A stretch of 64,000 nt of DNA, from the IMG/VR virus record IMGVR_UViG_3300049617_000275, positions 1 through 64,000 of that record. One strand, written 5' to 3'. A program made the position numbers and the translations under genes. This stretch comes from a virus. How positions within the stretch are numbered: position 1 is the first letter of the stretch; every line of letters begins with the position of its first letter. Shown in pieces: positions 1,062 through 62,243 of this stretch. Under the pieces are notes generated by a model. The model was not told where the DNA came from and ran no database searches. It saw only the letters and a list, made by a program, of their open reading frames with translations.

Positions 1062-2765
1062 GTGCCCAAGAAAAAGAAGAAAGGTAAATCCAAAACTCCG
1101 GCGGGGTTAAGTAAGGAACAGAAAAAGGTTTTCAAGGAAGATCCTGTTGCACTCAACGAAGCCGCGGTGGATCTGGGATTTGTAACTCGTGAAGAGGCGA
1201 TCCTAAATCTTCTTCCTGTGTCTCAGCGGAATTTCATAATTTCCGAGATCGAAAAGAAGTACGACACCGGCGTCTATACGGATGTTATGGATGCTTTTCG
1301 CAATCAAGCCCGTTTAGAATCTACGATAGACAGGGCTGTATCCTCCGCTCTTGCAAAGAAAGGAACGCCGGCGGGGGGTATATCCAAAGGTTTTCCCCTT
1401 ATCAATTCCTCTACCTCTATCCTGGGCTACGAACCCGCCGGGAGTGTCTTGAGGAAGCTCTATCCTAATCCTTTTGCGGTCTACAGTTTCATAGGTAACA
1501 ATCACTGGGCAACACTCCTGGCCCGCTCCCGGTTTCGTTGCGACGTTGCAAGAGATGGGTGGGTACTGGTAGCTCCGGAGGGAGTATCCAAGAAGCTTAT
1601 AAAAAAAGCCTATGTTGCACTTAACGATCTCTATGTAGATGATCTCCTCCTCAACGGCTCAGACATGTTGAATGTGTACGGGAATGTTTGGCTGGACAGA
1701 GATAGAAACCTTTTAGGAGGTCTCCGTGGAATTCAAATCTTGCTTCCGGAGAAGATCCTCCCTATTCTAGATACCTATGGAGATTACGTCTTAGGGTGGG
1801 AGTATATTATCGGAAACAAGCGTTTCTACTTCAACCTCGGAGAAATAGACCACCTCAAGACTTACAATCTGCGTAGTCTTCAGCTTGGAAATCCCCAACT
1901 AACATCTGTTGTTGTAGATGTGGAAGCGGATCTATATGCTTCTATATACGCTAACATGATGTTCCAAAAGGGTGGACTGGTAAGGGCAATTGTGTCCCTG
2001 GGCGACACTGCTTCTCAAACGGACTCCGGCGATGTTCATGCTTTGAATCCTGAAGTGCAACTGCACTTCTCCCAGCAGGTTTACGAAATGTTTGCTCGCC
2101 AATACTCAGGCGTCCGCGGAGCAAACCAACTTACCTTTCTCCCCAATGTAAAGGGCGTGTACCCCATTACAAATCCGAAGGATCTAGAAGGTCCTTACAA
2201 GGAAACCTCCGATCGTACTGCGATCAAGGTCTCTCAACTCCTCGGAGTGAGCCCAAGGAGAGTTGGGATTCACACAACTACCCAATACGAAAACAAACAG
2301 GCTGTAGAGGATTCAGAGCAGCTTGCAGATGATAATTGGCGTTACTACATTACAAACATTATGTTCAATTATATTAATTCCATTGTGATGAGAAATTATC
2401 TGGAAATAGACGGAGTTCAAATGAAGTACTCCGGCGAATATTCCTCAATTTGCCTATCCGCGGCGGAGTTCGGAGCAAACATTGCTCAAATGTCCTGCAA
2501 CTCTATTACCGTAGATGAATTTCGTACACGTATCCTGCATTGGGAAGCGTTAGGAGGTCCAGACGGAGCCGAGTTCATAGGAAATGTGGCTAACAAAGCT
2601 GCTCTGCTCAAGAACGCAGGCAATGCTGCTTCCAACAAGGATCTTGCAAAAGTAGAGGAATATCTCCAAAAGGCTGTAGGCCCCAAGCAACGTCTATATG
2701 TTAACGACTACGAGGGAAGGAAAGACCTTGTTGTCTACCATCCTCGCGACATACGATTTTGGTAG
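1062..2765 (+). CDS. portal protein candidate (567 aa)
   Basis: GTG start and a Lys-rich N-terminus. Size and position upstream of the prohead protease/scaffold and capsid genes fit a portal. The family is not verifiable by eye. Confidence 0.6.
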   Translation: MPKKKKKGKSKTPAGLSKEQKKVFKEDPVALNEAAVDLGFVTREEAILNLLPVSQRNFIISEIEKKYDTGVYTDVMDAFRNQARLESTIDRAVSSALAKKGTPAGGISKGFPLINSSTSILGYEPAGSVLRKLYPNPFAVYSFIGNNHWATLLARSRFRCDVARDGWVLVAPEGVSKKLIKKAYVALNDLYVDDLLLNGSDMLNVYGNVWLDRDRNLLGGLRGIQILLPEKILPILDTYGDYVLGWEYIIGNKRFYFNLGEIDHLKTYNLRSLQLGNPQLTSVVVDVEADLYASIYANMMFQKGGLVRAIVSLGDTASQTDSGDVHALNPEVQLHFSQQVYEMFARQYSGVRGANQLTFLPNVKGVYPITNPKDLEGPYKETSDRTAIKVSQLLGVSPRRVGIHTTTQYENKQAVEDSEQLADDNWRYYITNIMFNYINSIVMRNYLEIDGVQMKYSGEYSSICLSAAEFGANIAQMSCNSITVDEFRTRILHWEALGGPDGAEFIGNVANKAALLKNAGNAASNKDLAKVEEYLQKAVGPKQRLYVNDYEGRKDLVVYHPRDIRFW

Positions 2766-3079: not shown

Positions 3080-3553
3080 TTGATAAACACATACGTCATT
3101 TCTCCCGCAGCCCCCGTGACACTTACTTCTTCTGCTACGGCTAACATAGATATTCGCCTAAACAGTCTAGACGATATAAAGTTCTTCTTGAACCAAACCT
3201 GGCCGTCAGGATGTGGATCTACAACAGGTATTGCAGTTAACCTCTATCCGGGTTGGGGAGCGGCAGATCCCGCGGAGATCAAACTTCCTATTCCTTATGT
3301 CCTTTCTAACCCTGCGTCTGCAAACGTCTCTACAGTTCCGCAATTTTCTACCAACTATGCTCCGGTTCTTAACCAATCCGGAGGGAGTGCAATTGCTAAC
3401 CCTCCGGCGAACTCTTCCGCAGGAACTTCTACTACAACCGCCTTCTATCTGAATGCTGTGAATATGATTTGGACAAGCTGGATGAGGATGCAGATAGTGA
3501 ACCTAGATTCCGCTCACCCTGTCAAGATCTACCTTAACGCGGACTTATATTAA
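3080..3553 (+). CDS. hypothetical structural protein (157 aa)
   Basis: TTG start lies directly after the previous stop, with GGAGAAGAAG upstream. The protein is S/T/N/A-rich and precedes the fibre gene. Confidence 0.6.
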   Translation: MINTYVISPAAPVTLTSSATANIDIRLNSLDDIKFFLNQTWPSGCGSTTGIAVNLYPGWGAADPAEIKLPIPYVLSNPASANVSTVPQFSTNYAPVLNQSGGSAIANPPANSSAGTSTTTAFYLNAVNMIWTSWMRMQIVNLDSAHPVKIYLNADLY

Positions 3554-3568
3554 CCGCCGGAGGTATAA

Positions 3569-6500
3569 ATGTACGGATTTTACAACGGATACCCCCTTTT
3601 TGGCGGCACTTCGGGTTCTTCTGGAGGCGGGGGAGCAGATGTTGATGGCTACTATGTCCTCACACAATCGGATGCTGGTCTTCCCAACTCTTCTGTACTA
3701 ACTCCGGGCGTCGGTATTGCAATAAATGTAAGCGGCGGACTTTGCACAGTTTTGAATACGGTTTCTGGTTCAGGAACCGGCAGTGTTACTTCGTTTTCCG
3801 CGGGTAATCTTCAGCAATTATTTACCACTTCTGTTGCAAATCCCAATTCCACTCCTGCTCTTACTTTCTCTCAAATATCCCAAAACGGGAATCTTATATA
3901 CGCCTCTCCCTCCGGAGGAGCGGGCAATCCTTCCTTTAGGGCTCTCTTGGGTCCAGATCTGACATCCGCTCTCGAAGCCGGAAACAATATAACTCTTACT
4001 TCTAACGGCTCAGCGCTGTTGATTGCAACGGTTAACTCCGGCACGGTGTTTTCAGTAGGGCTTTCTATGCCTTCTATCTTCACAGTAGGAGGAACAAACC
4101 CAATCACAGGCTCGGGGAGTTTTAATGTAACTCTTGCAAACGAAAATGCAAATCTATTCTTTGTCGGCCCCGCTTCCGGCTCCTCCGCAGGACCTACATT
4201 CAGAGGGATTGTAGGAAACGATATTGTAAATGCCTTGATTGCGGGATCTGGAATCACTCTTGTCAACCAGGGCTCTGCCATCCTTGTTTCTTCTACAGCT
4301 ACTTCTTCTTCCTCCGGGACAGTAGCTTCGGTCTCCTGTACTTCTCTTTCTCCGCTGTTCTCTACAACGGTTGCAAATGCTTCTTCCACTCCGGCGATAT
4401 CTTTTACTCTAACTCCGCAAGCTTGCGGAACATTTCTTCGAGGTCCTTCCGCCGGAGCAAATGCTGCCCCCACTTTCGGAGGAGTTACCGGCAATGACCT
4501 CTCCGGAGTCCTGATCTCAGGAACAAACTCTTCTGTGGTCAACAACGGTTCTACAATCCAGGTCAACGTTCCTAATGCCCTTGGGGGCACAGTGACCTCT
4601 GTAACCGTTCACGGCACTCCGGAGATGTCTTCAGCAGGAAATCCTATAACAGGATCAGGTACTGTTCAGTTAGGATGGAATAGTGAGTCTGCCAACCTTT
4701 TTATGGCTGCTCCTTCTGCCGGTTCAGGAATTCCAGGATTTCGTGCTCTTACAGGAAACGATCTTGTTGGGGTACTTGTTGCCGGTTCAGATATCCAACT
4801 TACAAACAACGGGTCTACTCTTACAATAACAGCTTCTGCCCCCTCCGGCGGGAGTTCGGGAACCGTTACTTCTGTTGCAATGTCTGTTCCTCCTGCTCTT
4901 CTTTCGCTCACAGGATCGCCCATTACAGGAGCGGGGACTCTAGCAGTCAGTCTTGTAAATGCTTCTTCTACAACACTGTGGGCAGGACCCTCGGCCGGAG
5001 CTGCGGGAAGTCCTGGATATAGAGGACTCACAGGAAATGACATTCCCTTGGTTTCGGGAACAAACACGACCGTGGTCAACAATGGAGCTACGCTCCAGAT
5101 CAATGTTCCTTCTCCTTCTTATCCTGTAACAAGTGTAAGCAACTCAGATGGAACCCTTACAATTTCTCCTTCTACAGGAGCTGTTGTAGCGTCTATTGCG
5201 AACTCCGCTGCCCTGCCTGGGTCGCCTACCACTACTACCCAAAGTAGCACAGATAATTCAACAAAGATTGCAACAACCTCTTACGTTACAACTGCTGTTG
5301 CAAATGCAATTGCAGGAGTAAATCCCGCTGTTGCCGTACAAGTTGCAACCGTTTCCTCTTCTGACACCTCAGGACTTACTTACAACAACGGAGTCTCCGG
5401 GGTCGGAGCCACTTTCACTGGATCGACAAATACTGCTCTGACCTTCGATGGGGTAACCTTAACGTCGTTAAACCAACGTGTTCTTGTAAAGAACGACACT
5501 CAAAGTGGGAATCCTGGAGCATACAATGGAATCTACACTTTAACCCAACTCCAAACTGTTGGATTACCTCCTATACTCACACGGGCTGTGGATTACGATC
5601 AGCCCTCAGATATAAACAACACCGGCGCAATACCTGTTGTTTCGGGAACGGTAAATGCTGATACGAGTTGGTTGCTAACTTCTACCGTAGCTACTGTAGG
5701 AACAAGTGTTCTTACTTACACGCAGTTCACCTTAAATCCATCAAGTATTGTAACTGGAGCAGGTAACTTAACTCCTTTATTCACTACTTCTACTTCTGGA
5801 AATACTATTTCATTTAGTCTAACTAACGCCTCTGCGCATACAGTTTATTGTAATACTTCTGGAAGTTCTGCTGCTCCTGGGTTTAATGCTTTAACATTAA
5901 CTGCTGGAAATGGATTAACTGGAGGAGGTAATATAACAACCTCACCTACAGTTTCTGTAAGTCTTGGTGGAAGCTCTACTTATACTTCCGGAGCGTTAGT
6001 ATATGCTTCTAGTACAACAGCTTTAAGTGGATTAGCCCCAACTAATGGTGGAGTTTTAAGCTGTGCTTCAAGTATTCCTGTTTATTCATCTGCTGGATCT
6101 TCCGGACAACTATTACAATCTAATGGAACAAGTGCTCCATCTTTTACAACTAATACATGGCCTTCTACAGATACTAAAGGTGATTTAATTTATGCTTCTG
6201 CAAATAATCAAATTGCTGGATTAGCTATTGGTGCTACTAACTCTTTCTTAATTAGTAATGGAACTCTTCCAGTATGGACTTCAGCACAGAATGCACTTAA
6301 TGAATTAGCATCGGCTGGCGGCACCCCTACAAATGGACAAACGCTAATCTACAGTTCAGCAACTGAAAATTGGACTCCTGGTTCTGGCAGCATAATTCCT
6401 TCTGGCGAGGTTGGAGGAAGAATATATCTTGTATCTGGATCTCCGCTTGTAGACGGAGCCTCCGGAGGCAATTCAACAATATACTACGGGCCTTATACAT

Positions 6501-7237
6501 CCAATGTGGTAACAATCGGAGGAACTACTCAAACCTTTTCTGAAGCTTCTCTAGCTCTCTCCACTTCTGCCTCGGCATATTGGGTATATGTAAAATCCGC
6601 CGGAACAAGTTCTATAAGTCTAGGAACAGCGGCTTGGACAAATAATACAACTCCCTCTACTACCTACTCTCTTAACGGACAGATATATGCTGACTCCGGG
6701 CACACAGAACTTATTGTAGGAGGTATATATTGCCCCTCCGCTTCATCTACCCAAGACTGGCCAGGAGCTAGATGTATAAGTAATATCTATAATCCTATTC
6801 ATAAAATCTTAAGTGCTGTAGAAACATCTTCAAATTGGTCTACAAGCAGTGCTTCATGGAGTACTATGAATGGCTCTACAACTATCGGCACTCAGAGAGT
6901 AATAGTCTTTTGTACTATACCCACACCGGTAAATATAGAAACTAAAGTAAATATGTTTATGAGTAATCAAGGAAATATTTTCTCCGGACTTTTAGGATTA
7001 GCTTTAGATAGCGTATCTGTTTCTACTGCAAAGAGTGTAGTATTTGGCTATAGTTATCCCGGAGGACCTCTAAACGCTTCTGTCAGCACTAACTTAGTGG
7101 GTTTTCACTATTTTCAAAATCTACAAGCAGCCACTGACTCCGGAACTGCTACTTTTTATGGAGGTACGGGACAAGTAAATAGTGCTGGTCCCTCGGACGG
7201 ATATAACTGCTATATGTTAGGGAATGTGTTTTGCTAA
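3569..7237 (+). CDS. tail fibre protein (1222 aa) built from tandem repeats
   Basis: ATG follows a CCGCCGGAGG Shine-Dalgarno. There are at least five repeats of about 90-100 aa (GTVTSV..NPITGSGT..ANLF.AGPSAG..P.FR.LTGNDL). A DNSTKIATTSYV motif typical of phage tail fibres follows. The C-terminal part is AT-richer. Confidence 0.85.
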   Translation: MYGFYNGYPLFGGTSGSSGGGGADVDGYYVLTQSDAGLPNSSVLTPGVGIAINVSGGLCTVLNTVSGSGTGSVTSFSAGNLQQLFTTSVANPNSTPALTFSQISQNGNLIYASPSGGAGNPSFRALLGPDLTSALEAGNNITLTSNGSALLIATVNSGTVFSVGLSMPSIFTVGGTNPITGSGSFNVTLANENANLFFVGPASGSSAGPTFRGIVGNDIVNALIAGSGITLVNQGSAILVSSTATSSSSGTVASVSCTSLSPLFSTTVANASSTPAISFTLTPQACGTFLRGPSAGANAAPTFGGVTGNDLSGVLISGTNSSVVNNGSTIQVNVPNALGGTVTSVTVHGTPEMSSAGNPITGSGTVQLGWNSESANLFMAAPSAGSGIPGFRALTGNDLVGVLVAGSDIQLTNNGSTLTITASAPSGGSSGTVTSVAMSVPPALLSLTGSPITGAGTLAVSLVNASSTTLWAGPSAGAAGSPGYRGLTGNDIPLVSGTNTTVVNNGATLQINVPSPSYPVTSVSNSDGTLTISPSTGAVVASIANSAALPGSPTTTTQSSTDNSTKIATTSYVTTAVANAIAGVNPAVAVQVATVSSSDTSGLTYNNGVSGVGATFTGSTNTALTFDGVTLTSLNQRVLVKNDTQSGNPGAYNGIYTLTQLQTVGLPPILTRAVDYDQPSDINNTGAIPVVSGTVNADTSWLLTSTVATVGTSVLTYTQFTLNPSSIVTGAGNLTPLFTTSTSGNTISFSLTNASAHTVYCNTSGSSAAPGFNALTLTAGNGLTGGGNITTSPTVSVSLGGSSTYTSGALVYASSTTALSGLAPTNGGVLSCASSIPVYSSAGSSGQLLQSNGTSAPSFTTNTWPSTDTKGDLIYASANNQIAGLAIGATNSFLISNGTLPVWTSAQNALNELASAGGTPTNGQTLIYSSATENWTPGSGSIIPSGEVGGRIYLVSGSPLVDGASGGNSTIYYGPYTSNVVTIGGTTQTFSEASLALSTSASAYWVYVKSAGTSSISLGTAAWTNNTTPSTTYSLNGQIYADSGHTELIVGGIYCPSASSTQDWPGARCISNIYNPIHKILSAVETSSNWSTSSASWSTMNGSTTIGTQRVIVFCTIPTPVNIETKVNMFMSNQGNIFSGLLGLALDSVSVSTAKSVVFGYSYPGGPLNASVSTNLVGFHYFQNLQAATDSGTATFYGGTGQVNSAGPSDGYNCYMLGNVFC

Positions 7238-7668
7238 TGTCCGCATACTCACAAATTTTATTTTTGAATACTTATACGGCTTCCGGATGTGTAGGATGCA
7301 ATGGAGATCCTAACTGTGTAGATCCAGGTCCTTACGGTCTCATATATGTAGAAGGAACAGATCTTTCTGTACAGGCACAGATACTTACTGCCGCCGAGAG
7401 TTTCGATTGGAATCAAACTCCTCCTCCAGTGCCTAACATTGCAGGACTTATAGCCGCTGTAAAGACAGAACCTACCTTCAATGCACAAATAAGAACTGGA
7501 CTCGGGGGTCTATGTGCGACTCTTCTCGCAACAGGAATTACCTATGCTCAGCAGGAATACAACGATGCCGTAGAGACATACGGTAGTACTTGGCTTACTC
7601 CGGCGGTTCAGGCCACTCTCCTTGCATACTTTGTACAGTTTAACATCCCCATTGTGGCTGCTTCGTAG
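7237..7668 (+). CDS. hypothetical protein; fibre assembly chaperone by position only
   Basis: ATG overlaps the fibre stop (TAATG). The product is 143 aa and the gene lies immediately downstream of the fibre gene. Confidence 0.55.
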   Translation: MSAYSQILFLNTYTASGCVGCNGDPNCVDPGPYGLIYVEGTDLSVQAQILTAAESFDWNQTPPPVPNIAGLIAAVKTEPTFNAQIRTGLGGLCATLLATGITYAQQEYNDAVETYGSTWLTPAVQATLLAYFVQFNIPIVAAS

Positions 7669-7867
7669 AAATACTTGACACCGGGCGGGTGTCTGTGTTA
7701 CTCTGTTTTTGGAAGCGAGAAACATAGGAACAGATTCTCCGGTATATCTCTGCACTCGAACACATATGTTATCTTTAGAGTATTGCACCGGCGGGAGTCC
7801 AACAGATGTTTTCCGAACACCTTACAGAAGAACTTGTAAAATTCTGTAGGCAGGAAGAGGAGATAAA

Positions 7868-8350
7868 TTGGAGATAGTACTTGTAATAGTAACCGTTGCC
7901 CTTGTAATTGCAGTAGGGTTCGCGGTCAAACAGGAAAGAGATCTTGTAAGACTCCGGGAGGAGTTACAGACTAAGAACAGTGCCATTCAGGAGTATCTTT
8001 CTGGACAGGAAGATAATGTAGATCTTTTGATGGAAAAAGGGAAAGATCTCCTTCGTCGAGGAGACGACGCTCTTTCTGCGCATAAGCTAGAAGTAGAGAA
8101 TATAAAACTCCCTGTTCCGAGAGAAGATGTAGAGATCGTGTTCGTTTCAGATCATCCGAGTAATCACCTTAGCGACAATTACCTTCAGGTAAGGCTTAAG
8201 ATCAAGAATAGAGAATTGGATAAGCCCGGAGACGGCTTTTACTGTGCAATTCCTAAGAAACCCGGCCTTGTCCTCACTCCCGGCGAGCCCATCTCGGAAG
8301 AGTTGGCCTTACATATCCTTTCCCACCCTATTCTAGATTACCTTCGTTAG
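7868..8350 (+). CDS. membrane-anchored protein (160 aa)
   Basis: TTG start with a GGAAGAGGAG Shine-Dalgarno. An N-terminal TM helix (IVLVIVTVALVIAVGFAV) is followed by a charged region. Confidence 0.6.
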   Translation: MEIVLVIVTVALVIAVGFAVKQERDLVRLREELQTKNSAIQEYLSGQEDNVDLLMEKGKDLLRRGDDALSAHKLEVENIKLPVPREDVEIVFVSDHPSNHLSDNYLQVRLKIKNRELDKPGDGFYCAIPKKPGLVLTPGEPISEELALHILSHPILDYLR

Positions 8351-8387
8351 ACAGGGAGATTCCGGATGACGAAAAAGAGGATGGAAA

Positions 8388-8585
8388 ATGACAAACTCCA
8401 GAACACAGTCTCGTCTCAGGAAAAATAAAAGAGATGCTAAGGACAGGGTACAGGAGTTCGTTAATTCCTATTCCGGAGAAGGGTTGGGAGCAAGTGACCC
8501 TCAAGTAATGATGGATGACGTTGAGGAATTGCTGGAAGCTTTAGCTGTTTTGGGGTTTTACCCTGAATTGGGGGACGAAGATTAA
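8388..8585 (+). CDS. small acidic protein (65 aa)
   Basis: ATG with a GAGGATGG Shine-Dalgarno. It ends with LLEALAVLGF, a motif shared with the next ORF. Confidence 0.55.
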   Translation: MTNSRTQSRLRKNKRDAKDRVQEFVNSYSGEGLGASDPQVMMDDVEELLEALAVLGFYPELGDED

Positions 8586-8741
8586 ATGTTGGAAGTATAC
8601 GCAGAAGCAAGGGATATCGTAGAAAACTGGATGTACCTCCTAGAAATAGGAGACACCGGCGGGGCTGCAGAGGGTGCATATAGTTTATTGAGCGCTTTAA
8701 AAGTCCTTGGATTTAAGGCGTGGGAGCCTATAGAAAGATGA
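8586..8741 (+). CDS. small protein (51 aa), paralog of 8388..8585
   Basis: Not in the supplied track because it is under 60 aa. ATG directly follows the previous TAA. It carries LLSALKVLGF, matching LLEALAVLGF upstream. Confidence 0.45.
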   Translation: MLEVYAEARDIVENWMYLLEIGDTGGAAEGAYSLLSALKVLGFKAWEPIER

Positions 8742-9520
8742 CAATGCAGATAGTTTTGGTCCACGGTATCCTCGAAACAGATTCCTCTGCCGAGGTCCTT
8801 ATAAAGGATTGGTGTTTTAACCCCCAAGGATATATAAAACCTACAACCCGTGTCTCCGCGGCGTTCTGGGGAGATTTATCTTCTGCTCAAGAAAAGAAAA
8901 CACTCCGAACTTCTTGGGGAGACAAGATAGAAGATGGGGTCTACAAAGCTGCCACAAACAATTCTCTCCTCAAGGACTGCTACAACTACTTTTACAACGA
9001 GGAACTCCGGGCGGAAATACAGCAGAGATTCTTTTCCTGTATTGCGGCAATGTCCCCCGGAGACGACGTATGCATTATTTCCCACTCCCAAGGTACGGTA
9101 ATTGCTTACGAATGTCTCCTCAAAATGGAATTGGGAACAGCTCCGGCGCTTCCCGTAGTTAACTTCACAAACCTTATTACTATCGGAAGCCCCCTAGGTT
9201 TAGAGCAGATGCGGGCGGAGTTAAGAACTGCAAACAGTATTCCCAAGCTGCACATTCCCAAGAATGTTTGGAAGTGGGAGAACTTCAACGACATCCGAGA
9301 TCTTGTTGCAGCAGTACATAAGATATCTTCTCTGTACCCTGTAAAACAGGACAAGCTCGGTCCGGAGACAAATCCTTCCTTTGTTTACCCTATACAGGAT
9401 ATCCAGGTCGTAAATCCATGGACTCCGGCGGACGGAGGATTTTTCTTTCACGACATCGATACTTACCTCCAAGTTCCTGTTATCCGGGATACTATCCGCG
9501 CAGCACAGGGATTGCATTAG
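8738..9520 (+). CDS. alpha/beta-hydrolase (lipase/esterase-like serine hydrolase)
   Basis: ATG overlaps the previous stop (ATGA). It has VLVHGI near the N-terminus and a GxSxG-type nucleophile elbow, IISHSQGT. Confidence 0.65.
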   Translation: MTMQIVLVHGILETDSSAEVLIKDWCFNPQGYIKPTTRVSAAFWGDLSSAQEKKTLRTSWGDKIEDGVYKAATNNSLLKDCYNYFYNEELRAEIQQRFFSCIAAMSPGDDVCIISHSQGTVIAYECLLKMELGTAPALPVVNFTNLITIGSPLGLEQMRAELRTANSIPKLHIPKNVWKWENFNDIRDLVAAVHKISSLYPVKQDKLGPETNPSFVYPIQDIQVVNPWTPADGGFFFHDIDTYLQVPVIRDTIRAAQGLH

Positions 9521-9564
9521 TGGGTATATACAAAAACCTATTATCGAACACAAGGAAATGACAT

Positions 9565-10194
9565 ATGTTTGAGAGGTTTGATGCTCAGGCTATAAAAGTT
9601 GTAATGCTTTCTCAAGAAGAGGCGAGGAGACTTGGACATAATTTTGTAGGTACAGAGCAGATCCTTCTAGGAATTATAGGAGAAGGAGGAGCACCGGCAA
9701 AGCTTTTGCGGAGCTTAGGCGTCCGTCTTTTGGATGCACGCACAGAAATAGAAAAGATCGTAGGTCGAGGCAGTGGGTTTGTTGCAAGAGAGATTCCTTT
9801 TACGCCCAGAGCCAAGCGTGTTCTTAGTAATGCTTGGGAAGAAGCAAGGAAAATAGGACACAATTACATATCCCCGCCTACTATTCTTTTAGGCTTACTC
9901 CGAGAGACAGAGGGAGTTTCTGCTCGTGTTTTGGAGAACCTAGGAACAGATTTGGATGTTTTATATAAACTTACTCTAGAGCAAACTCCGGACAAGAAAA
10001 TGCCAGCCGAGCCGGTGTTTGACCCGTCCAGACTCATAGCAAGAATTCTTGATCTGGACTCAGGAATGCTGGATCTTGTAAAAGGGAATTTGAAACACAG
10101 CCTCATGCTGATCTCCAAGCCTTGTGAAGCGGATATCGAAGAAGGAGTACGGAGTTTGGTTGACTTTGTAACTCTCTTGAAGTCTATAAAGTAG
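9565..10194 (+). CDS. stand-alone ClpC/ClpA N-terminal (double Clp_N repeat) domain protein with a novel C-terminal tail of about 70 aa
   Basis: [38 protein letters not shown]....[21 protein letters not shown]...[10 protein letters not shown] is near-identical in pattern to ClpC N-domains. No AAA+ module follows. Confidence 0.85.
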
Positions 10195-10201
10195 GCAAAG
10201 T

Positions 10202-10678
10202 ATGTCTGAGAAACTAACACTGGAAGAACAAGCTTGTAACTTCAAAACGATGGAACACATCCATCTTGTTGCCCGAGGTCTTCACAGCATGATCAAAGAA
10301 CTTTTGGATAGGGCAGACAAACACGATGCAAGTAAGCTGACATCGCCGGAGGTAGAAGCCTTCACAGAATTTACTCCTAAGTTGGCAAGGCTTACATTTG
10401 GCTCTCCGGAGTATTATGCTCAGTTGAACTCCGCGGAGTTCCAAACGGCAATCACCCACCATTACTGCAATAACCGTCACCACCCGGAGGCACATAAGTC
10501 TGGGATAGATGATATGAATATCGTAGATATTGCAGAAATGCTGTCGGATTGGTATGCTTCTAGCAAGAGACAGTATGACGGTAATCTCCGGAAGAGTATA
10601 GAGAAGAACGCAGATAGGTTCGGTATGTCTCCTCAGCTCCGGAGGATACTGGAAAATTCCATAGATTTGTTCGAATAG
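10202..10678 (+). CDS. HD-motif protein resembling the DUF5662 family
   Basis: Motifs HDASKL, FGSPEYY, HHYCNNRHHPE and DIAEMLSDW are present. The family name is from memory. Confidence 0.55.
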   Translation: MSEKLTLEEQACNFKTMEHIHLVARGLHSMIKELLDRADKHDASKLTSPEVEAFTEFTPKLARLTFGSPEYYAQLNSAEFQTAITHHYCNNRHHPEAHKSGIDDMNIVDIAEMLSDWYASSKRQYDGNLRKSIEKNADRFGMSPQLRRILENSIDLFE

Positions 10679-10686
10679 GGATTAGT

Positions 10687-10736
10687 GCCGAAGTGTCTTA
10701 ACGGCGGGATTTAAAATCCCAAATCGTAGTCTTCCT
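10687..10736 (+). other. tRNA-Leu(UAA)-like fragment (acceptor 5' strand plus anticodon arm, no T arm)
   Basis: GCCGAAG-TG is followed by GGGATTTAAAATCCC, the anticodon arm of bacterial tRNA-Leu(UAA). The D arm is truncated and there is no T arm or matching 3' acceptor. Confidence 0.3.
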
Positions 10737-10758
10737 GTAAATAAATTAAGAAAGTTAA

Positions 10759-10790
10759 AATACTCCTGAATCCGCGGGAGTATTTTTGTT
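10759..10790 (+). terminator. rho-independent terminator
   Basis: Hairpin ATACTCC-tgaatccgc-GGGAGTAT is followed by TTTTTGTTTT. Confidence 0.65.
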
Positions 10791-13088
10791 TTGATATCCA
10801 GAAAAGAAGTAGAAGATCTTATATACGAGGTCTCCGGCGCCTTGTCGGTTGAAGAAAAGAGGAGCAAAGCTCTCTCTGCTCTTTCTCTGGTCTCTACTCC
10901 GGTAACTCACGATGCGGTTAAAGGTGCAGATCCGGAAGTTCTGGAAGGCATTGTTCAGGACATAATCGAGAAACTTGTATCTCTTCTCCGCGCAATCGAC
11001 GCCGGAGAAAAATCTTCCGAATCCAAATCCAAAGAAGTAGAGTTGGATGGAAACGACAACGTAGTTCTTCCCATTGACAACTCCCCGCTTGTTCCCCCTT
11101 CTCCGGGAGAGCCGAATACGCTTGTAGGAACGATTGATCCTAACGCAACTGGGATTCCAGACAATGCCCGTAAGTCTGCACCCAAAACTATGGATGCCGA
11201 TCTTATGGAACAGTTGGATCATCCTAATTTTCCTACATATTCCGATATGGATACAGAGAAGTATCCTACAGTTTACTCCGGCGATGAGTCGCAGATATCT
11301 TCTTCCGACGAAGTTGCGGGGAGTAAGGATCTGGGGAACACTCCACCGCATACTCTGGATCAGTTCTATCCTGTGAAAGTAGGAGACTTCGTATCCTGGG
11401 CTTCTCCCCTAGGAAGATCCTTCGGGCAGGTGGAAAGTATTGTTTTTGCAGGACAGGTGAACATTCCTGACTCCGGCAACAGTCTTGCAATGATTGCAAC
11501 AGAAGAAGATCCTGTCTGTCAAACTCGTATTTACAGAAACGACTCCGGGGAGGGATGGAGTAAAACCGATACTGTTACTTCCCTCAAGATGTCTGCTCTC
11601 TACAGAATCGATCCTTTGGAAGGTCCCCGTGCTCTTCCGCCGGTGTTACCTAACTCTCGGTCAAACTCATACTCCGCGCCGGAGTGCCAAAAGATCCTAA
11701 ATAGAAAAGGATTGGGACATTTCAAGGCCCTCGACAACGGAACAGTTTCTGTTGTCAAGAACTTCCAGATAGGAAAAGCAGAAGTTCAGAAAGACATAAA
11801 CTCCGTGAGCTTAGGAAGCGGCGGGAGTAGAAAATCTTCCTTTGACATAACCGGAGAGGATAGAGCACTTCTAGGATCAGATTGGATACCCGACGGAAGT
11901 ATATGCTGCGACGTTGTTGCAGCCGACTCGGACGTTGACAGAGGGAATGAACAGTTCCTTTCTCCTTCCTTAGATCAGCTCGCTCTTCTTTACAAAGGGA
12001 TGCCTTTACTTTTAGATCATGATTGGTCGGCTAGGAATATTGTAGGAAAGATTCTCTCCGGAAGAAATGACTCCGGCGAGCTTGTACTCCGGGCATTTGT
12101 TCCCAACACAGACGCTAACAAATGGGTTGTTGATGCAATCAAATCCGGAATCTTCTGTAAGGTATCCGTGGGATTTGCATCTTCTCCGGATTGTATGCTC
12201 TGCTCCGTTTGCAAGATTTCCATGTCTTCGGAGACGTGCCCTCACCAACCAGGAGAGACAACTCCTTTAGGAACTCCGGTAGTTCTCCAATACTCCGGGG
12301 TGTCAGATGTTTACGAAGTGTCCATTGTAGGAGTCCCTATGCAACGCAACGCGAGGATAAAAGGAGTTCATAGTCTCTTAGATTCCATTCTCCCGACAAC
12401 CGAAAAGAGACTGTTAGATAGAATTTCTTCCGAGACCAATACTAAAGGAACTGTTGAATTGTCTACTAAAGAAGTTACTCCGGCGGAGAAAGAAAATTTG
12501 ATGCCTCAAACGGCAGTCGATCCACAGTCTGCTGGAACCTTGGATGACCCGGTAGTTCCTGGAACTGCAAAATCTGCCGAAGACATGCCTAAAGAGAATC
12601 CCGGTGAAGAACCAGGAATGAATAAGGGTTTTGGTGCGATGCACGACAAGATGGATGCCCATTCCAAGATGATTGGGGAAGTCCATCAAGCTCACGAGAA
12701 TTTGAAAAACGATGTTGCCAAGATGTTCGGTACTTTGCAGCAAGTTCACGACACCTGCGGGGACATCGGGCGTAAATTAGAAGATGTTCACAGCAAGTGC
12801 GATGCCATGCATGGGTTGATGAAGTCTTTCTCCGGCGCTTCTGAGTCTATTCAGAAGGAACTAACTACCAACAAGGAAGAAAACGACGCAATACTTGTGA
12901 AATTTGCACAGGCGCTGGTAGAAATTCATAAGATGTTGGAAGTAGGTATGTCCGTATCTACGGAAACTATTCGTAAGCAGTTGTCTCAGGACAACCTTGC
13001 GCGGGAGAATGCTCTCCAAAAATCCACAAAATACTGGGTCCAAGAAGTATTTGGCTCAGACAACAATGACTCTGGAGGTCAACAGTAA
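10791..13088 (+). CDS. prohead protease (HK97/S78-like) fused to a scaffold-like coiled-coil C-terminus (765 aa)
   Basis: The central part carries VVAADSDVDRGNEQF...LLLDHDW..VGKI...GELVL....VDAIKSGIFCKVSVGF, which matches the prohead-protease pattern. The C-terminus is His/Lys-rich and helical. The TTG start is uncertain. It lies directly upstream of the capsid gene. Confidence 0.7.
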   Translation: MISRKEVEDLIYEVSGALSVEEKRSKALSALSLVSTPVTHDAVKGADPEVLEGIVQDIIEKLVSLLRAIDAGEKSSESKSKEVELDGNDNVVLPIDNSPLVPPSPGEPNTLVGTIDPNATGIPDNARKSAPKTMDADLMEQLDHPNFPTYSDMDTEKYPTVYSGDESQISSSDEVAGSKDLGNTPPHTLDQFYPVKVGDFVSWASPLGRSFGQVESIVFAGQVNIPDSGNSLAMIATEEDPVCQTRIYRNDSGEGWSKTDTVTSLKMSALYRIDPLEGPRALPPVLPNSRSNSYSAPECQKILNRKGLGHFKALDNGTVSVVKNFQIGKAEVQKDINSVSLGSGGSRKSSFDITGEDRALLGSDWIPDGSICCDVVAADSDVDRGNEQFLSPSLDQLALLYKGMPLLLDHDWSARNIVGKILSGRNDSGELVLRAFVPNTDANKWVVDAIKSGIFCKVSVGFASSPDCMLCSVCKISMSSETCPHQPGETTPLGTPVVLQYSGVSDVYEVSIVGVPMQRNARIKGVHSLLDSILPTTEKRLLDRISSETNTKGTVELSTKEVTPAEKENLMPQTAVDPQSAGTLDDPVVPGTAKSAEDMPKENPGEEPGMNKGFGAMHDKMDAHSKMIGEVHQAHENLKNDVAKMFGTLQQVHDTCGDIGRKLEDVHSKCDAMHGLMKSFSGASESIQKELTTNKEENDAILVKFAQALVEIHKMLEVGMSVSTETIRKQLSQDNLARENALQKSTKYWVQEVFGSDNNDSGGQQ

Positions 13089-13090
13089 GA

Positions 13091-14308
13091 ATGACAGCAA
13101 CAGCCGATATTAAAGGCGTTTGGGATGCCCTAGACGGGTTGATTGCCAAGAAGCATCAGCTTACCGGTACTGCTCCGGCCCCAGAAATCACAGCCATTGC
13201 CAACAAGAGAATGGAGCAGAATAAGCTGAACCTGGAAAAGGCTTTGCTCATGGATGTTCCAGATCCCCGCGACCGTTCGGTTAACACCGCTCAGTCCAAA
13301 GAATATGTAATGGGAGTCATTACCAAGGATCTGAAATCCACGGATCTAAACAGCTTGCGTCTTGTATCTCTCGCTGACAAGATGGGAGAGCTGCGTAACG
13401 GTCAGACAGTATTCCTTAACGTAGTAGAAGCTAACTCCGTCCAACGCGTCACCGACTTCCAAGTCCGTTTACGGGAACGTAGACTCGGTCAACAGACTGC
13501 TCAATGGCTGTCTCTCAACCAAGATCAGTTTGCTCCAGAAGCTCAGTCCAACTATCCGCAAAGAAGCAATACTTTAGGATTCTTGGGTAACCAGCTCAAC
13601 ATCCGTTTGATCGGTCAAGAACTTGCAGCTCAGTCTCCTGTTCAACCGGTAGACATTGTTCAGCAGGAGATCGAGTTCGAAGTAACCCGTATTCGCAGAG
13701 CGATGTCGAAATACCTGCTCTTCAACTACGAAGTTGTTAACGAAGCTTCCATTACTCCCCCGCAGCCAGGCGGATTCATAAATAGATCCAACCTGTACAA
13801 CTTTAATCTATCTGTTCCTTCGGATTTCACAAACGCAATTATCCAGCAATCTGTGGATGCGATTGCAAATGCTGCAAACCCAGAAGGTGTGTCCTACAAC
13901 GTTCCGTTGGTTTGCTTGTGCCCTTCAAGTCAGATCTCCAAGATCCGTGATTTGATGATTGCAAGATATCCTGGAACCAACGCGGAGACGTTCTTGAACG
14001 AGCAGAGTGAGCTTCGTGCCCGCTTCGCTCAAGTAGGAATTGCGCCAAATCAGATGAAGGCTTATCAGCCCGATCCCGGTATGAGCGTTCTGTTTATATT
14101 TGATCCGTTGCTCCCTGGCAACACCGCGATCTTCTTCGATCCTACCCAACCTCAACTAGGTAAGTTCCAGATCAACGGTCAGTATGGTCCTTGGGCAATC
14201 GAACGTCCAACTCCGGCTCTGACTACCCTCCTGTATGTTTTCGACGGATTCACCCTCCTGGATAACCTCCGGGAAACTCGGTCGGTTGTAACTAACCTCA
14301 ATAACTAA
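13091..14308 (+). CDS. major capsid protein candidate (405 aa)
   Basis: It starts 3 nt after the protease-scaffold stop. The size is typical, and a strong terminator follows immediately. Confidence 0.7.
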   Translation: MTATADIKGVWDALDGLIAKKHQLTGTAPAPEITAIANKRMEQNKLNLEKALLMDVPDPRDRSVNTAQSKEYVMGVITKDLKSTDLNSLRLVSLADKMGELRNGQTVFLNVVEANSVQRVTDFQVRLRERRLGQQTAQWLSLNQDQFAPEAQSNYPQRSNTLGFLGNQLNIRLIGQELAAQSPVQPVDIVQQEIEFEVTRIRRAMSKYLLFNYEVVNEASITPPQPGGFINRSNLYNFNLSVPSDFTNAIIQQSVDAIANAANPEGVSYNVPLVCLCPSSQISKIRDLMIARYPGTNAETFLNEQSELRARFAQVGIAPNQMKAYQPDPGMSVLFIFDPLLPGNTAIFFDPTQPQLGKFQINGQYGPWAIERPTPALTTLLYVFDGFTLLDNLRETRSVVTNLNN

Positions 14309-16592: not shown

Positions 16593-16665
16593 GCCGGAGA
16601 AGCAGAATAGGATATGCACTCCACTTGTAATGGAGAGATTGTGAGTTCGAAGCTCACCTCTGGCT
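16593..16665 (+). tRNA. tRNA-Thr (anticodon UGU)
   Basis: Hand-folded cloverleaf. Acceptor GCCGGAG/CTCTGGC, D arm GCAG-AATAGGAT-ATGC, anticodon arm CTCCA-CTTGTAA-TGGAG, 5-nt variable loop, T arm GTGAG-TTCGAAG-CTCAC. Position 8 is A. CCA is not encoded. Confidence 0.8.
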
Positions 16666-21322: not shown

Positions 21323-21673
21323 TATAGAGTCTGAAACGAACGAGGTGGGACTCACTAACTGACACCCCCAGCAGGAATCTAGGTTAGTGCTTTTTAAGTC
21401 TGACTCCCGAAGACTATAAAAATAGGGAATACCGCCCGATGGTGCAACAGCTACCAATACACCTGAGGATTTAATTCCTCTTATAAGGCGCGATAGTTGA
21501 CTCCGATAAACTTTAAACTCTCGGAGCCTTTTGCAAACAGGTTGATTGATCCTTATTCCTGTTCGCCCAGTCGGAAAAATAGAAAGGATCTACTTTAAGG
21601 GTAGGTTAGTCCTATGTTCCCTGAATCGATCTTGCAGCGCAACAAGGGGATTTGAATACAAAGGGCCGTGTTC

Positions 21674-21744
21674 TTGAAAAGAGCTGGTAGGACACAGCAC
21701 CTGCGTTCAGCAGGGAGATAGGGGTTCGAGTCCCCTTTTTCGAG
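21674..21744 (+). ncRNA. tRNA-like element 1 (non-canonical anticodon arm)
   Basis: Acceptor TTGAAAA/TTTTCGA, extendable to 11 bp. D arm GCTG-GTAGGACA-CAGC, T arm AGGGG-TTCGAGT-CCCCT. The anticodon arm is only 15 nt (CCTGC-GTTCA-GCAGG). Confidence 0.35.
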
Positions 21745-21753
21745 AACTACATC

Positions 21754-22065: not shown

Positions 22066-22137
22066 GCGGATGTGGTATATACGTCTGTGCCGCAGTGCTC
22101 CACACTGTAGAATCGAGTTCGAATCTCGACCTCCGCT
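22066..22137 (+). tRNA. tRNA-Gly(UCC)-like, with C33 and one acceptor mismatch
   Basis: Acceptor GCGGATG/CCTCCGC with a T6-C67 mismatch. The D stem is weak (G-C, U-G, A-U, U-G). Anticodon arm GCAGT-GCTCCAC-ACTGT, T arm TCGAG-TTCGAAT-CTCGA. Confidence 0.45.
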
Positions 22138-32278: not shown

Positions 32279-32296
32279 CGCTATTTCATTACACTA

Positions 32297-32368
32297 TCCG
32301 AGTAAAGAATGTCGAAATCTTGGCCCCTTGCTCCCAAAGCAAGTGCTCTTCCTCTGAGCTACACCCGG
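32297..32368 (-). tRNA. tRNA-Pro (anticodon UGG)-like, antisense to the flanking genes, weak T stem
   Basis: Reverse strand fold. Acceptor CCGGGTG/TACTCGG, TA-GCTC-AGAGGAA-GAGC D arm, anticodon arm CTTGC-TTTGGGA-GCAAG, T arm AAGAT-TTCGACA-TTCTT with a 53-61 U-U mismatch. Confidence 0.55.
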
Positions 32369-32450
32369 ACCCATATTTTATCTCTAAAGTTCGCCGGTGT
32401 CAAGGATAGAATAGGGTCGAACAGTAGGAAAAGGAAGAGAGATAGATAAA

Positions 32451-61691: not shown

Positions 61692-62243
61692 CTACTCTCC
61701 TTTCAAAACAATCGGCGGGCCGCAATCGGAGCGAAGCTTGCAGGCAGTGTCTACTGCATCGAAAGCAAGATCCCAAAGCTCCTCTTTTGTATGTGCTTTA
61801 CTGTACCCATATTCCAGAACTGCCCTACATATATCTCCTCCGCTCCCGGCTACTACGTAGCGGGAGGACTCTACACAGAATCCGTAGGGATCAGGATAGA
61901 AAAGTCCGGAGTCGGAAACAATGATAACATCGAACTCCGGCGGAGGATCTGCACACACAGAATACATCTTGTCTGCAACGATGGACTGGAAACGGTTAGC
62001 ATCCTCTACCCCCCGCATCTCCAAATACTTTGCTTTTGAGTTCAGAAGCGAGTATACACAGTGCTGGACTGCCATATTCGTTCCCGCATAAAGAGCTGTA
62101 AATCGAGGAAATATACAGTACTTCTTCGAATTTGAAAGCTCGAAGATCTCGTCGCCGGAGCAAATCCGGGAGTCACAAGCCCAAACAGTATATGCACATT
62201 CTTCCCGAGGGAGGTATTTTCTAACTGCACATATCGCTGTCAA
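61692..62243 (-). CDS. HslV/proteasome beta-subunit-like Ntn hydrolase
   Basis: TTG start gives an M-T-A-I-C-A-V N-terminus (Thr1). ACDSRI is the Asp17 equivalent and SKKYCIF the Lys33 equivalent. YAGTNMAV and VVAGSGGDICRAVLEYGY align with the HslV/20S beta motifs. Confidence 0.7.
   Translation of the reverse strand: MTAICAVRKYLPREECAYTVWACDSRICSGDEIFELSNSKKYCIFPRFTALYAGTNMAVQHCVYSLLNSKAKYLEMRGVEDANRFQSIVADKMYSVCADPPPEFDVIIVSDSGLFYPDPYGFCVESSRYVVAGSGGDICRAVLEYGYSKAHTKEELWDLAFDAVDTACKLRSDCGPPIVLKGE

Follow-up and report, generated by a model that had tools for sequence, protein, structure and literature searches.

The window analysed here, the whole stretch of 64,000 nucleotides (64 kb) at positions 1 to 64,000 of the IMG/VR record IMGVR_UViG_3300049617_000275, comes from a moss metagenome and is a fragment of a tailed-phage genome, with genes for a portal, a prohead protease and an SU10-type major capsid protein (MCP). 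Among these genes, an open reading frame (ORF) at 9565..10194 encodes a stand-alone copy of the N-terminal domain (NTD or N-domain) of the unfoldase ClpC, in which one of the two ligand pockets of the domain survives and to which an orphan C-terminal tail is attached. Cyanobacteria and plastids cannot do without the ClpC-ClpP protease, which in mycobacteria serves as a drug target, and the ClpC N-domain is its hub for adaptors, degrons and antibiotics. The gene and its parts are listed below, with residues numbered in the phage protein and their ClpC equivalents in brackets.

9552..9557, plus strand: AAGGAA resembling a Shine-Dalgarno site, 7 nt before the ATG of the Clp_N ORF, read from the sequence
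9565..10194, plus strand: stand-alone ClpC-type N-domain protein, ATG start, 209 aa plus stop (ORF listing)
9565..9984, plus strand: residues 1-140, complete double-repeat Clp N-domain of eight helices, cyanobacterial/plastid ClpC type (Pfam, 5gui match, AlphaFold2 and Foldseek)
9580..9588, plus strand: codons D6-A7-Q8, replacing the near-invariant T-E-K/R (ClpC T7, E8, R9)
9652..9657, plus strand: codons T30-E31 of the retained pocket (ClpC T31/E32), from the residue map with the pocket definition of PMC12583610
9802..9804, plus strand: codon T80 of the retained pocket, from the residue map
9826..9834, plus strand: codons S88-N89-A90, replacing E-L-S (ClpC E89, L90, S91)
9871..9882, plus strand: codons S103-P104-P105-T106, replacing G-T-E-H (ClpC G104, T105, E106, H107)
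9985..10023, plus strand: residues 141-153, Pro-rich acidic linker (isoelectric point 4.8), predicted to be disordered
10024..10191, plus strand: residues 154-209, orphan helical tail with predicted helices at 154-161, 166-183 and 188-208, amphipathic, net charge ~0

Residues 1-140 are a real N-domain of the ClpC type, and not of the ClpA or ClpB type, far beyond chance. The product matches the Pfam family Clp_N (PF02861) with E=9.1e-27 (93.4 bits, cutoff 20.7) in two stretches, one per repeat, and its best relative of solved structure is the N-domain of Arabidopsis ClpC1 (5gui, E=8e-57 over residues 1-130), followed by those of Mycobacterium tuberculosis ClpC1 (~1e-38) and Bacillus subtilis ClpC (~1e-35). 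Weaker matches were obtained for ClpC2 (1e-12), ClpT1/2 (1e-11) and ClpB (8e-4), and the NCBIfam models of ClpA and ClpB gave weak partial matches only. The phage N-domain is ~70-75% identical to the N-domains of Cyanobacteriota and plastid ClpC, ~70% across 140 residues and 68% for Arabidopsis ClpC1 (AtClpC1). An AlphaFold2 (AF2) model of the 209-residue protein, built from a 27-sequence alignment, has a mean predicted local distance difference test score (pLDDT) of 87, and residues 1-140 are predicted as eight helices with pLDDT above 90. Foldseek superposed the modelled N-domain on 5gui with a root-mean-square deviation (rmsd) of 1.1 Å over 140 columns and a template-modelling score, TM(target), of 0.91, and on the M. 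tuberculosis and B. subtilis domains with rmsd of 0.9-1.4 Å.

The remainder of the unfoldase, two AAA+ modules and the M-domain, is missing, as the ORF ends at 10194 and the next gene, coding for a DUF5662 protein, starts at 10202. A tblastn search of the window in six frames with the ClpC linker and first AAA+ module (AAA1) as query returned nothing, the best score (E ~0.6) lying far from the gene. The first-pass annotation, a model's reading of the letters alone, had described a phage gene with a stand-alone double Clp_N domain of ClpC type at residues 1-140, followed by no AAA+ module and by a unique tail of about 70 residues, and on each of these points it was borne out. It had also allowed for the ORF being the front portion of a full-length ClpC-like gene that an assembly error had split, and this was ruled out, as was a chimeric join. 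None of the frames of the 64 kb holds a remnant of an AAA+ module, and the contig runs through without a break; two contigs on record, an 84-kb Logan contig and one of 108 kb, encode a protein identical to that of the window, and the Logan contig matches window positions 8500-11500 with zero differences or joints at a word depth of ~17. The flanks are phage structural genes, and about 30 other viral contigs carry genes of similarly short architecture. We found no point in favour of an assembly artefact and consider it next to impossible. The two sequencing runs concerned, X1 and X2, yield the same contigs at the same depth and probably go back to a single library that was deposited two times; they do not count as independent confirmation.

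In order to map individual residues, B. subtilis ClpC was used as the reference, verified against the Protein Data Bank (PDB), and the phage N-domain was then compared with 75 ClpC-type N-domains. Of the 121 columns with conservation of 90% or more, it deviates at 28. Where conservative, the departures are swaps of I, V and L in the core; the non-conservative ones cluster at residues 6-8, 88-90 and 103-106, and loops are altered too (T42 deleted, A44P, V75R). The motif FTEK has become FDAQ, ELS has become SNA (residues 88-90) and the signature IGTEH reads ISPPT, so that a domain first annotated as reproducing ClpC almost motif for motif was in this respect overstated.

These changes fall unevenly on the two phospho-arginine (pArg) pockets of the domain. 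The E106 pocket ("pArg1") includes T7 and touches the M-domain of the neighbouring subunit in the ClpC resting state, together with the R9-E435 contact; it is the more relevant pocket for activation by pArg, with E106 a crucial determinant and T7D itself an activating mutation (PMC12583610). In the phage protein this pocket is destroyed by D6, P104 and P105 (T7→D, T105→P, E106→P) and R9 is replaced by Q8; a proline at the E106 column is found in 0 of the 75 ClpC-type sequences. With the E106/T7 pocket replaced, the protein cannot be a faithful two-site pArg receptor. The E32 pocket ("pArg2"; PMC12583610) is retained in terms of residue conservation, with T30, E31 and T80 all present, and F2, F79, K84, R85 and R121 are kept as well. 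Whether the pArg-binding residues are preserved, a question posed by the first-pass annotation, thus has a divided answer, yes for the T30/E31/T80 pocket and no for the E106/T7 pocket.

The residues of Escherichia coli ClpA that touch the N-degron adaptor ClpS are E23, E28, T81 and R86 (PMC12493166), and by homology only they map to N26, E31, T80 and R85 of the phage protein, a set identical to that of cyanobacterial and plastid ClpC. The ClpS-contact residues are conserved in AtClpC1 too, yet pull-downs of AtClpC1-NTD with ClpS1 were reported to be unsuccessful (PMC5347014). The contacts of cyclomarin in the hydrophobic groove of M. tuberculosis ClpC1 include F2, F80, K85 and E89 (PMC5347014); of these the phage protein keeps F2, F79 and K84 and has Ser at the E89 position. 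K85 also anchors the N-domain to AAA1 (PMC12583610). Among 80 named genomic N-domains, 74 have none of the 26 deviant positions checked in common with the phage protein, and the close matches (72-76% identity) share at most one. Since the deviant residues are nearly absent from these genomic N-domains, the changes arose in the phage lineage.

The N-domain is followed by the linker, with a pLDDT of ~54 that drops below 50 at residues 145-150, and by the tail, which is predicted to be helical with pLDDT of 67-76 in the full-length model and 71 when folded alone. The tail has next to no relatives. The k-mers of residues 130-209 are shared with no protein in a collection of 5.8 billion clusters, and an exhaustive phmmer search of residues 135-209 against 1.84 billion representatives found the protein itself and one borderline multi-stretch match (E=9e-4). 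Pfam and PHROGs gave no significant match to the tail; Foldseek of the tail alone against the PDB gave no structural neighbour with E<3 and no helix-turn-helix (HTH) match, and the full model had no significant neighbour in BFVD. For the 209-residue protein as a whole, no close relative was found in IMG/VR. An NblA-like helical hairpin was considered for the tail and is without Pfam or structural support. The GC content at third codon positions (GC3) is ~0.31 for the N-domain and jumps to ~0.51 for the tail, but at only z=-1.4 this is not unusual genome-wide and we give it little weight as a signal of foreign origin.

The N-domain points to its donor. Its sequence type is marked by GHNFVGTEQ and by a second signature of 20 residues. 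The top-scoring matches in the protein collection are cyanobacterial proteins (Oculatella, Nostoc, Rivularia) consisting of two tandem N-domains, and true ClpC fragments rank next, with ~70% identity over 140 residues. Among GTDB genomes, the best 80 named matches listed (72-76% identity) are mostly from Melainabacteria/Vampirovibrionia (Gastranaerophilales, Obscuribacterales) with a few photosynthetic cyanobacteria. A neighbour-joining tree grouped the phage protein weakly, on a long branch, with the tandem-NTD proteins (sister group tandem-only in ~75 of 100 bootstraps), a grouping that could possibly be long-branch attraction. On the basis of these matches we place the donor, and probably the host as well, in the Cyanobacteriota in the broad sense, either cyanobacteria or Melainabacteria. 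The hint in the first-pass annotation that the host has ClpC is in line with this, as the sequence points to a Cyanobacteriota-type ClpC. A scenario of a photosynthetic cyanophage involving NblA was also entertained and is weakened, the best named matches listed being mostly non-photosynthetic Melainabacteria.

The gene is not alone of its kind: phrog_35667, gp251 of mycobacteriophage Myrna and about 30 IMG/VR contigs are further cases. The hidden Markov model of phrog_35667 (PHROGs, 'unknown function') matches residues 1-132 with E=4.5e-33 at profile positions 11-143 of 235, leaving the part of the profile that covers the tail unmatched. This family, Myrna gp251 and the Phabba homologue are likewise phage-encoded stand-alone ClpC-type N-domains with a short tail of ~80 aa. 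Myrna gp251 (EU826466.1, 152856..153563, 235 aa) is named 'Clp family protein, ATPase domain' in GenBank, which is misleading, as it consists of an N-domain only (Clp_N, E=1e-34) and has no ATPase domain. Unlike the protein of the window, it is of the actinobacterial ClpC1 type (82-86% identical to M. tuberculosis ClpC1, 44% to the window protein), keeps both GTEH pockets and has an unrelated tail, and it was therefore captured separately, from another host clade. In IMG/VR, 38 loci came out of a profile scan, among them four full-length ATPases, one gene truncated where its contig ends and about 30 stand-alone N-domains (199-350 aa), the tails of which fall into several unrelated groups. Nearly all of these stand-alone N-domains keep both pockets and are closest to M. 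tuberculosis ClpC1. With most viral copies of the actinobacterial type and that of the window of the Cyanobacteriota type, at least two separate captures must have occurred.

The only other viral copy that leans towards the cyanobacterial type is found at two loci, L013 (6001..6942 on a 118 kb contig) and L014 (205 kb), where the N-domain is fused to a cytidine/dCMP deaminase (PF00383, E=1e-19); as in the window protein, T31/E32/T81 are kept and T105/E106 are lost. At another locus (L033) the fusion partner of the ClpC-type N-domain is HD_4 (E=4e-10), a RelA/SpoT-type hydrolase domain, and the tails at L036 and L039 are 64-69% identical to that of L033. Two further loci (L038 and L041) have an N-domain with a 350-aa C-terminus of no assigned kind. 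A literature search retrieved no paper on phage-encoded copies of the ClpC N-domain and no experimental study of Myrna gp251.

These fusions raise the possibility that the domain serves as a tether or adaptor. The N-domain would dock on the AAA1 or M-domain of ClpC, via K84 and R121, or on the ClpP/R core in the manner of ClpT, and the tail would recruit a protein of the phage or the host; the protease would then be retargeted, activated or blocked, and not deprived of ligands by titration. The kept K84 and R121 correspond to the resting-state contacts K85-D356 and R122-N462, the fusion of the domain to a dCMP/cytidine deaminase, to HD_4 or to long unrelated tails in other phages suggests a docking module for cargo, and the free N-domain paralogues ClpT do bind the plastid Clp core. 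It is the enzyme fusions that lead us to retain tethering as an explanation, if an unlikely one. The residues that contact the M-domain, T7 and R9, are precisely those that have changed, the tail is without a recognisable binding fold or motif, and the protein is far closer to ClpC (1e-57) than to ClpT (E~1e-11). Indeed, the analogy with plant ClpT that had been drawn in the first-pass annotation is weak. ClpT1 and ClpT2 of plants and algae are free double Clp_N proteins that derive from ClpC and share the fold of the phage protein, but they are only 29-30% identical to it (68% for ClpC1), they act on the ClpP/R core ring, and ClpT is restricted to algae and plants (PMC7966870).

Free N-domains are common in cells, too. 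ClpC-type tandem N-domain proteins without an ATPase account for 43 of the 119 best database matches (P0002, P0003, P0010, P0022 and 39 others). These cellular proteins of cyanobacteria, Melainabacteria and Chloroflexia have N-domains of the sequence type found in the phage, but unlike the phage protein they have a pair of complete N-domains, mostly with both pockets, to which a Cys4 tail is added in some, and they lie in chromosomal contexts. In Nostoc and Rivularia the C-terminal tail is of the form CxxC...CxxC. On a 73-kb bacterial contig (JGI 3300015360; locus L007, 10001..16715) four consecutive Clp_N-only genes of 294, 326, 106 and 523 aa are found directly upstream of a full-length Clp ATPase of 865 aa, in a chromosomal context.

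A parallel among cellular proteins is mycobacterial/actinobacterial ClpC2, a free homologue of the ClpC1 NTD that binds pArg and, like a sponge, soaks up NTD ligands, antibiotics among them (PMC10030653; PMC13345244). It keeps one of the two pArg pockets, and its C-terminal helix forms an oligomer interface that pArg disrupts (PMC13345244). The phage protein resembles it as a free NTD-like domain without an ATPase, with a single conserved pArg pocket and C-terminal helices, for which self-association has been described in ClpC2. ClpC2 differs in being a cellular autorepressor with an N-terminal DNA-binding and dimerisation domain and a C-terminal NTD-like domain (E~1e-12), whereas the domain order in the phage protein is reversed and its tail, of net charge ~0, has no DNA-binding fold; judging from the residue spacing (T100/T197), ClpC2 appears to keep the opposite pocket. 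Shared features such as the single pocket and the C-terminal helices would allow the phage protein to work as a ligand sensor in the manner of ClpC2, the remaining pocket sensing a pArg-like ligand and thereby controlling self-association through the C-terminal helices and the activity of a partner. We regard this as very unlikely, given the reversed order, the lack of a DNA-binding domain, a neutral to acidic tail of long helices without an HTH match, and the fact that an arginine kinase has not been described for cyanobacteria.

Compared with ClpC itself (5GUI for AtClpC1, 3WDB for M. tuberculosis ClpC1, 2Y1Q and 5HBN for B. subtilis), the phage protein shares the fold and the double Clp_N repeat of the N-domain, but it is without the AAA+ modules, the M-domain and the ClpP-docking loops; it has lost the E106/T7 pocket and the R9 contact, is changed at E89/L90, has a one-residue loop deletion and has gained an unrelated C-terminus of 69 residues. 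ATPase-less ClpC N-domain proteins are already catalogued in phages and known in bacteria and plants, and the phage protein adds to them; what is distinctive in it is the single surviving pocket together with the orphan tail.

The most economical reading of these data, which we favour tentatively and put somewhat short of an even chance, is that the protein is a mimic acting in trans that competes with host ClpC for the ligands of its N-domain. During infection the phage would make a soluble copy of the domain on which adaptors and substrates of host ClpC dock. The retained pocket (T30/E31/T80 with N26 and R85) would be the equivalent of the ClpS-binding site of ClpA and of the E32 pArg pocket of ClpC, and because one full docking pocket and most of the hydrophobic groove are kept, the protein may bind ligands that otherwise dock on ClpC. 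These would most plausibly be ClpS or groove-binding substrates, which would be withheld from the ClpC-ClpP protease, and the choice of proteins degraded during infection would be altered as a consequence. The orphan tail would probably provide self-association, and thus avidity, or a second, phage-specific partner, and the lost surfaces (T7, R9, the E106 pocket) would be those that are useful only inside the ClpC hexamer or its resting state, as expected of a free domain. The data show which domain this is, how it is predicted to fold, that an ATPase is missing, that the gene lies in a phage and which residues are kept or lost; that the protein binds in trans, which ligand it takes, how proteolysis is affected and what the tail does we infer. 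The presence of a ribosome-binding site and the tight packing of the gene with its neighbours support the reading. So do the selective conservation of the ClpS-contact residues, the recurrence of host-type stand-alone N-domains in Myrna and about 30 viral contigs, and the like pattern of kept and lost pocket residues at L013/L014, and ClpC2, by sequestering N-domain ligands, provides a cellular precedent for it.

A decoy had also been the proposal of the first-pass annotation, and it remains the most economical reading; the ligands named there, MecA-type adaptors and McsB or pArg-tagged proteins, are derived from Firmicutes. The only ClpC adaptors listed for cyanobacteria are ClpS1, ClpS2 and NblA, with McsB not mentioned and both MecA and McsB outside the cyanobacterial system as described (PMC7966870). 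In a Cyanobacteriota host the best candidate for the retained pocket would be ClpS, and pArg is a conceivable alternative, for which no kinase has been described in cyanobacteria.

Several points weigh against a mimic. This exact gene is found in one phage lineage only and the nearest relatives have no copy within ±10 kb of the capsid gene, which indicates that it is dispensable for this type of phage. A pure decoy explains the enzyme fusions found elsewhere, with a deaminase or an HD hydrolase, less well than a module for targeting or regulation does. Changes in part of the groove (E88S, L89N) may impair substrate binding. The ClpS site is assigned by homology to E. coli ClpA-ClpS, and the corresponding pull-downs with AtClpC1-NTD and ClpS1 (PMC5347014) failed; finally, the host is placed to phylum level only.

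Taken by itself the protein is one more ATPase-less Clp_N protein, and the recurrent capture of the ClpC N-domain by phages, with interchangeable C-terminal modules, may outweigh the single gene in interest. Phages of at least two host phyla have captured just the hub domain of ClpC. If such proteins act as mimics or tethers, phages would offer natural modulators of Clp proteolysis that are genetically encoded and could become tools, with which, for instance, the N-degron/ClpS route might be blocked or cargo tethered to ClpC. Such modulators would also be evidence that the regulated proteolysis of the host is a battleground in infection. The single-pocket variant amounts to a natural separation-of-function mutant, which indicates the surface of the N-domain that matters when the domain is free.

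The genomic setting of the gene is that of a variable island within the head module, with the following landmarks.

1062..2765: portal
3080..3553: g157, conserved gene left of the island
3569..10678, plus strand: variable accessory island of ~7 kb between g157 and the prohead protease, from tblastn synteny
10202..10678, plus strand: DUF5662 gene (Pfam PF18907, E=1.2e-34), beginning 7 nt past the stop of the Clp_N gene
10757..10786, plus strand: terminator-like hairpin with a 12-bp stem and T-run, from a consensus scan only, at the end of the accessory block and immediately ahead of the prohead protease gene
10791..13088: 765-aa protein with a prohead-protease-like domain
13091..14308: SU10-type MCP

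The island holds g1222, g145, g160, two small ORFs, a 266-aa ORF, the Clp_N gene and the DUF5662 gene, the last of which is probably co-transcribed with the Clp_N gene. Synteny was assessed by tblastn against the capsid neighbourhoods (±10 kb) of three metagenomic relatives with 80%, 70% and 64% MCP identity. All three conserve the protease, the MCP and most downstream genes; the portal and the small gene after it are covered only by the locus of the 64% relative (L006), where both are conserved. No match to the Clp_N gene, the 266-aa ORF or the DUF5662 gene was found in these neighbourhoods, and the only island gene matched at all is g1222, by a distant relative at another position in L006 and by a short, weak one in L005. 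Given that the island genes are absent at that position in the relatives, the Clp_N gene is an accessory passenger of the moron kind, carried in a variable part of the head module, and does not count among the core genes of this phage type. Isolate relatives of the phage were not found in INPHARED by megablast or by tblastn with the MCP.

Such a location would suit a gene without selected function, a neutral passenger or a relic in decay: illegitimate recombination would have brought in the 5' end of host clpC, or of the gene for a free N-domain paralogue, which now reads into phage sequence. The restriction to one lineage, the orphan tail and the 28 departures at 121 highly conserved columns could be read in the same way, as could the GC3 step were it not for its z of only -1.4 genome-wide. 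The ORF is intact, however, with a ribosome-binding site and a clean end of the domain after helix 8 and the linker; the substitutions in the core are conservative and the model is very confident. One pocket has stayed the same throughout and a specific surface has been remodelled; that the fold has survived ~30% divergence implies that the gene was retained for long and under constraint, and other phages have repeatedly acquired the ClpC N-domain. We rate a relic as quite improbable.

The location also enters into a broader proposal, in which stand-alone ClpC N-domains with interchangeable tails would form an unrecognised, recurrently evolved class of phage proteins that hijack or blind host ClpC-ClpP, the single-pocket version from Cyanobacteriota titrating ClpS. 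With the prohead protease and capsid genes next downstream, a role in guarding head proteins processed by the protease would be in keeping with the location, since processing would expose new N-termini and with them a risk of N-degron degradation. As a whole we consider this proposal rather doubtful.

Of the neighbouring genes, the DUF5662 gene has the conserved motifs H...HD and HHPE.H, which suggests a metal-dependent hydrolase. A link through the HD superfamily to the Clp_N-HD_4 fusions was tried and rejected, with no PDB match and an hhalign probability of 0.1%. A DUF5662 gene 40% identical to that of the window occurs at locus L047 (9824..10144), 3.4 kb from an N-domain gene. The 266-aa ORF (8720..9520, plus strand), directly upstream of the Clp_N gene, contains a nucleophile-elbow-like motif, IISHSQGT, and matches no Pfam, PHROG, NCBIfam or PADLOC family. 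The PADLOC models, consulted for anti-phage defence and known counter-defence families, gave zero matches for the Clp_N protein, g145, g160, the 266-aa ORF and the DUF5662 protein. g1222 is a 1222-aa ORF (3569..7237, plus strand) without a family match and with the lowest GC3 in the window (0.30); its relative in L006, at a different genomic position, is 40% identical.

Elsewhere in the genome, a 183-aa ORF (61692..62243, minus strand) matches the Pfam family Proteasome with 32.1 bits (threshold 22.4), as well as phrog_1040 'peptidase HslV family' and an archaeal proteasome beta model. Its start, (M)TAICAVR, resembles the TTIVSVR of HslV with its Thr1 nucleophile, and AGSGGD is present. It is the second proteostasis-type gene of the phage, and an AAA+ partner for it was not seen in the window. 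Upstream of the first gene of the window, near the portal region, a 1055-aa intein-containing gene (locus L001, 1..669; Hom_end, Hint and LAGLIDADG matches) is probably the large terminase. The GC content of the window is flat at 45-47%, and tRNA genes are interspersed among the structural genes: Thr-TGT (16593..16665, plus strand), Glu-TTC (21673..21745, plus strand), Gly-TCC (22066..22137, plus strand) and Pro-TGG (32296..32369, minus strand).

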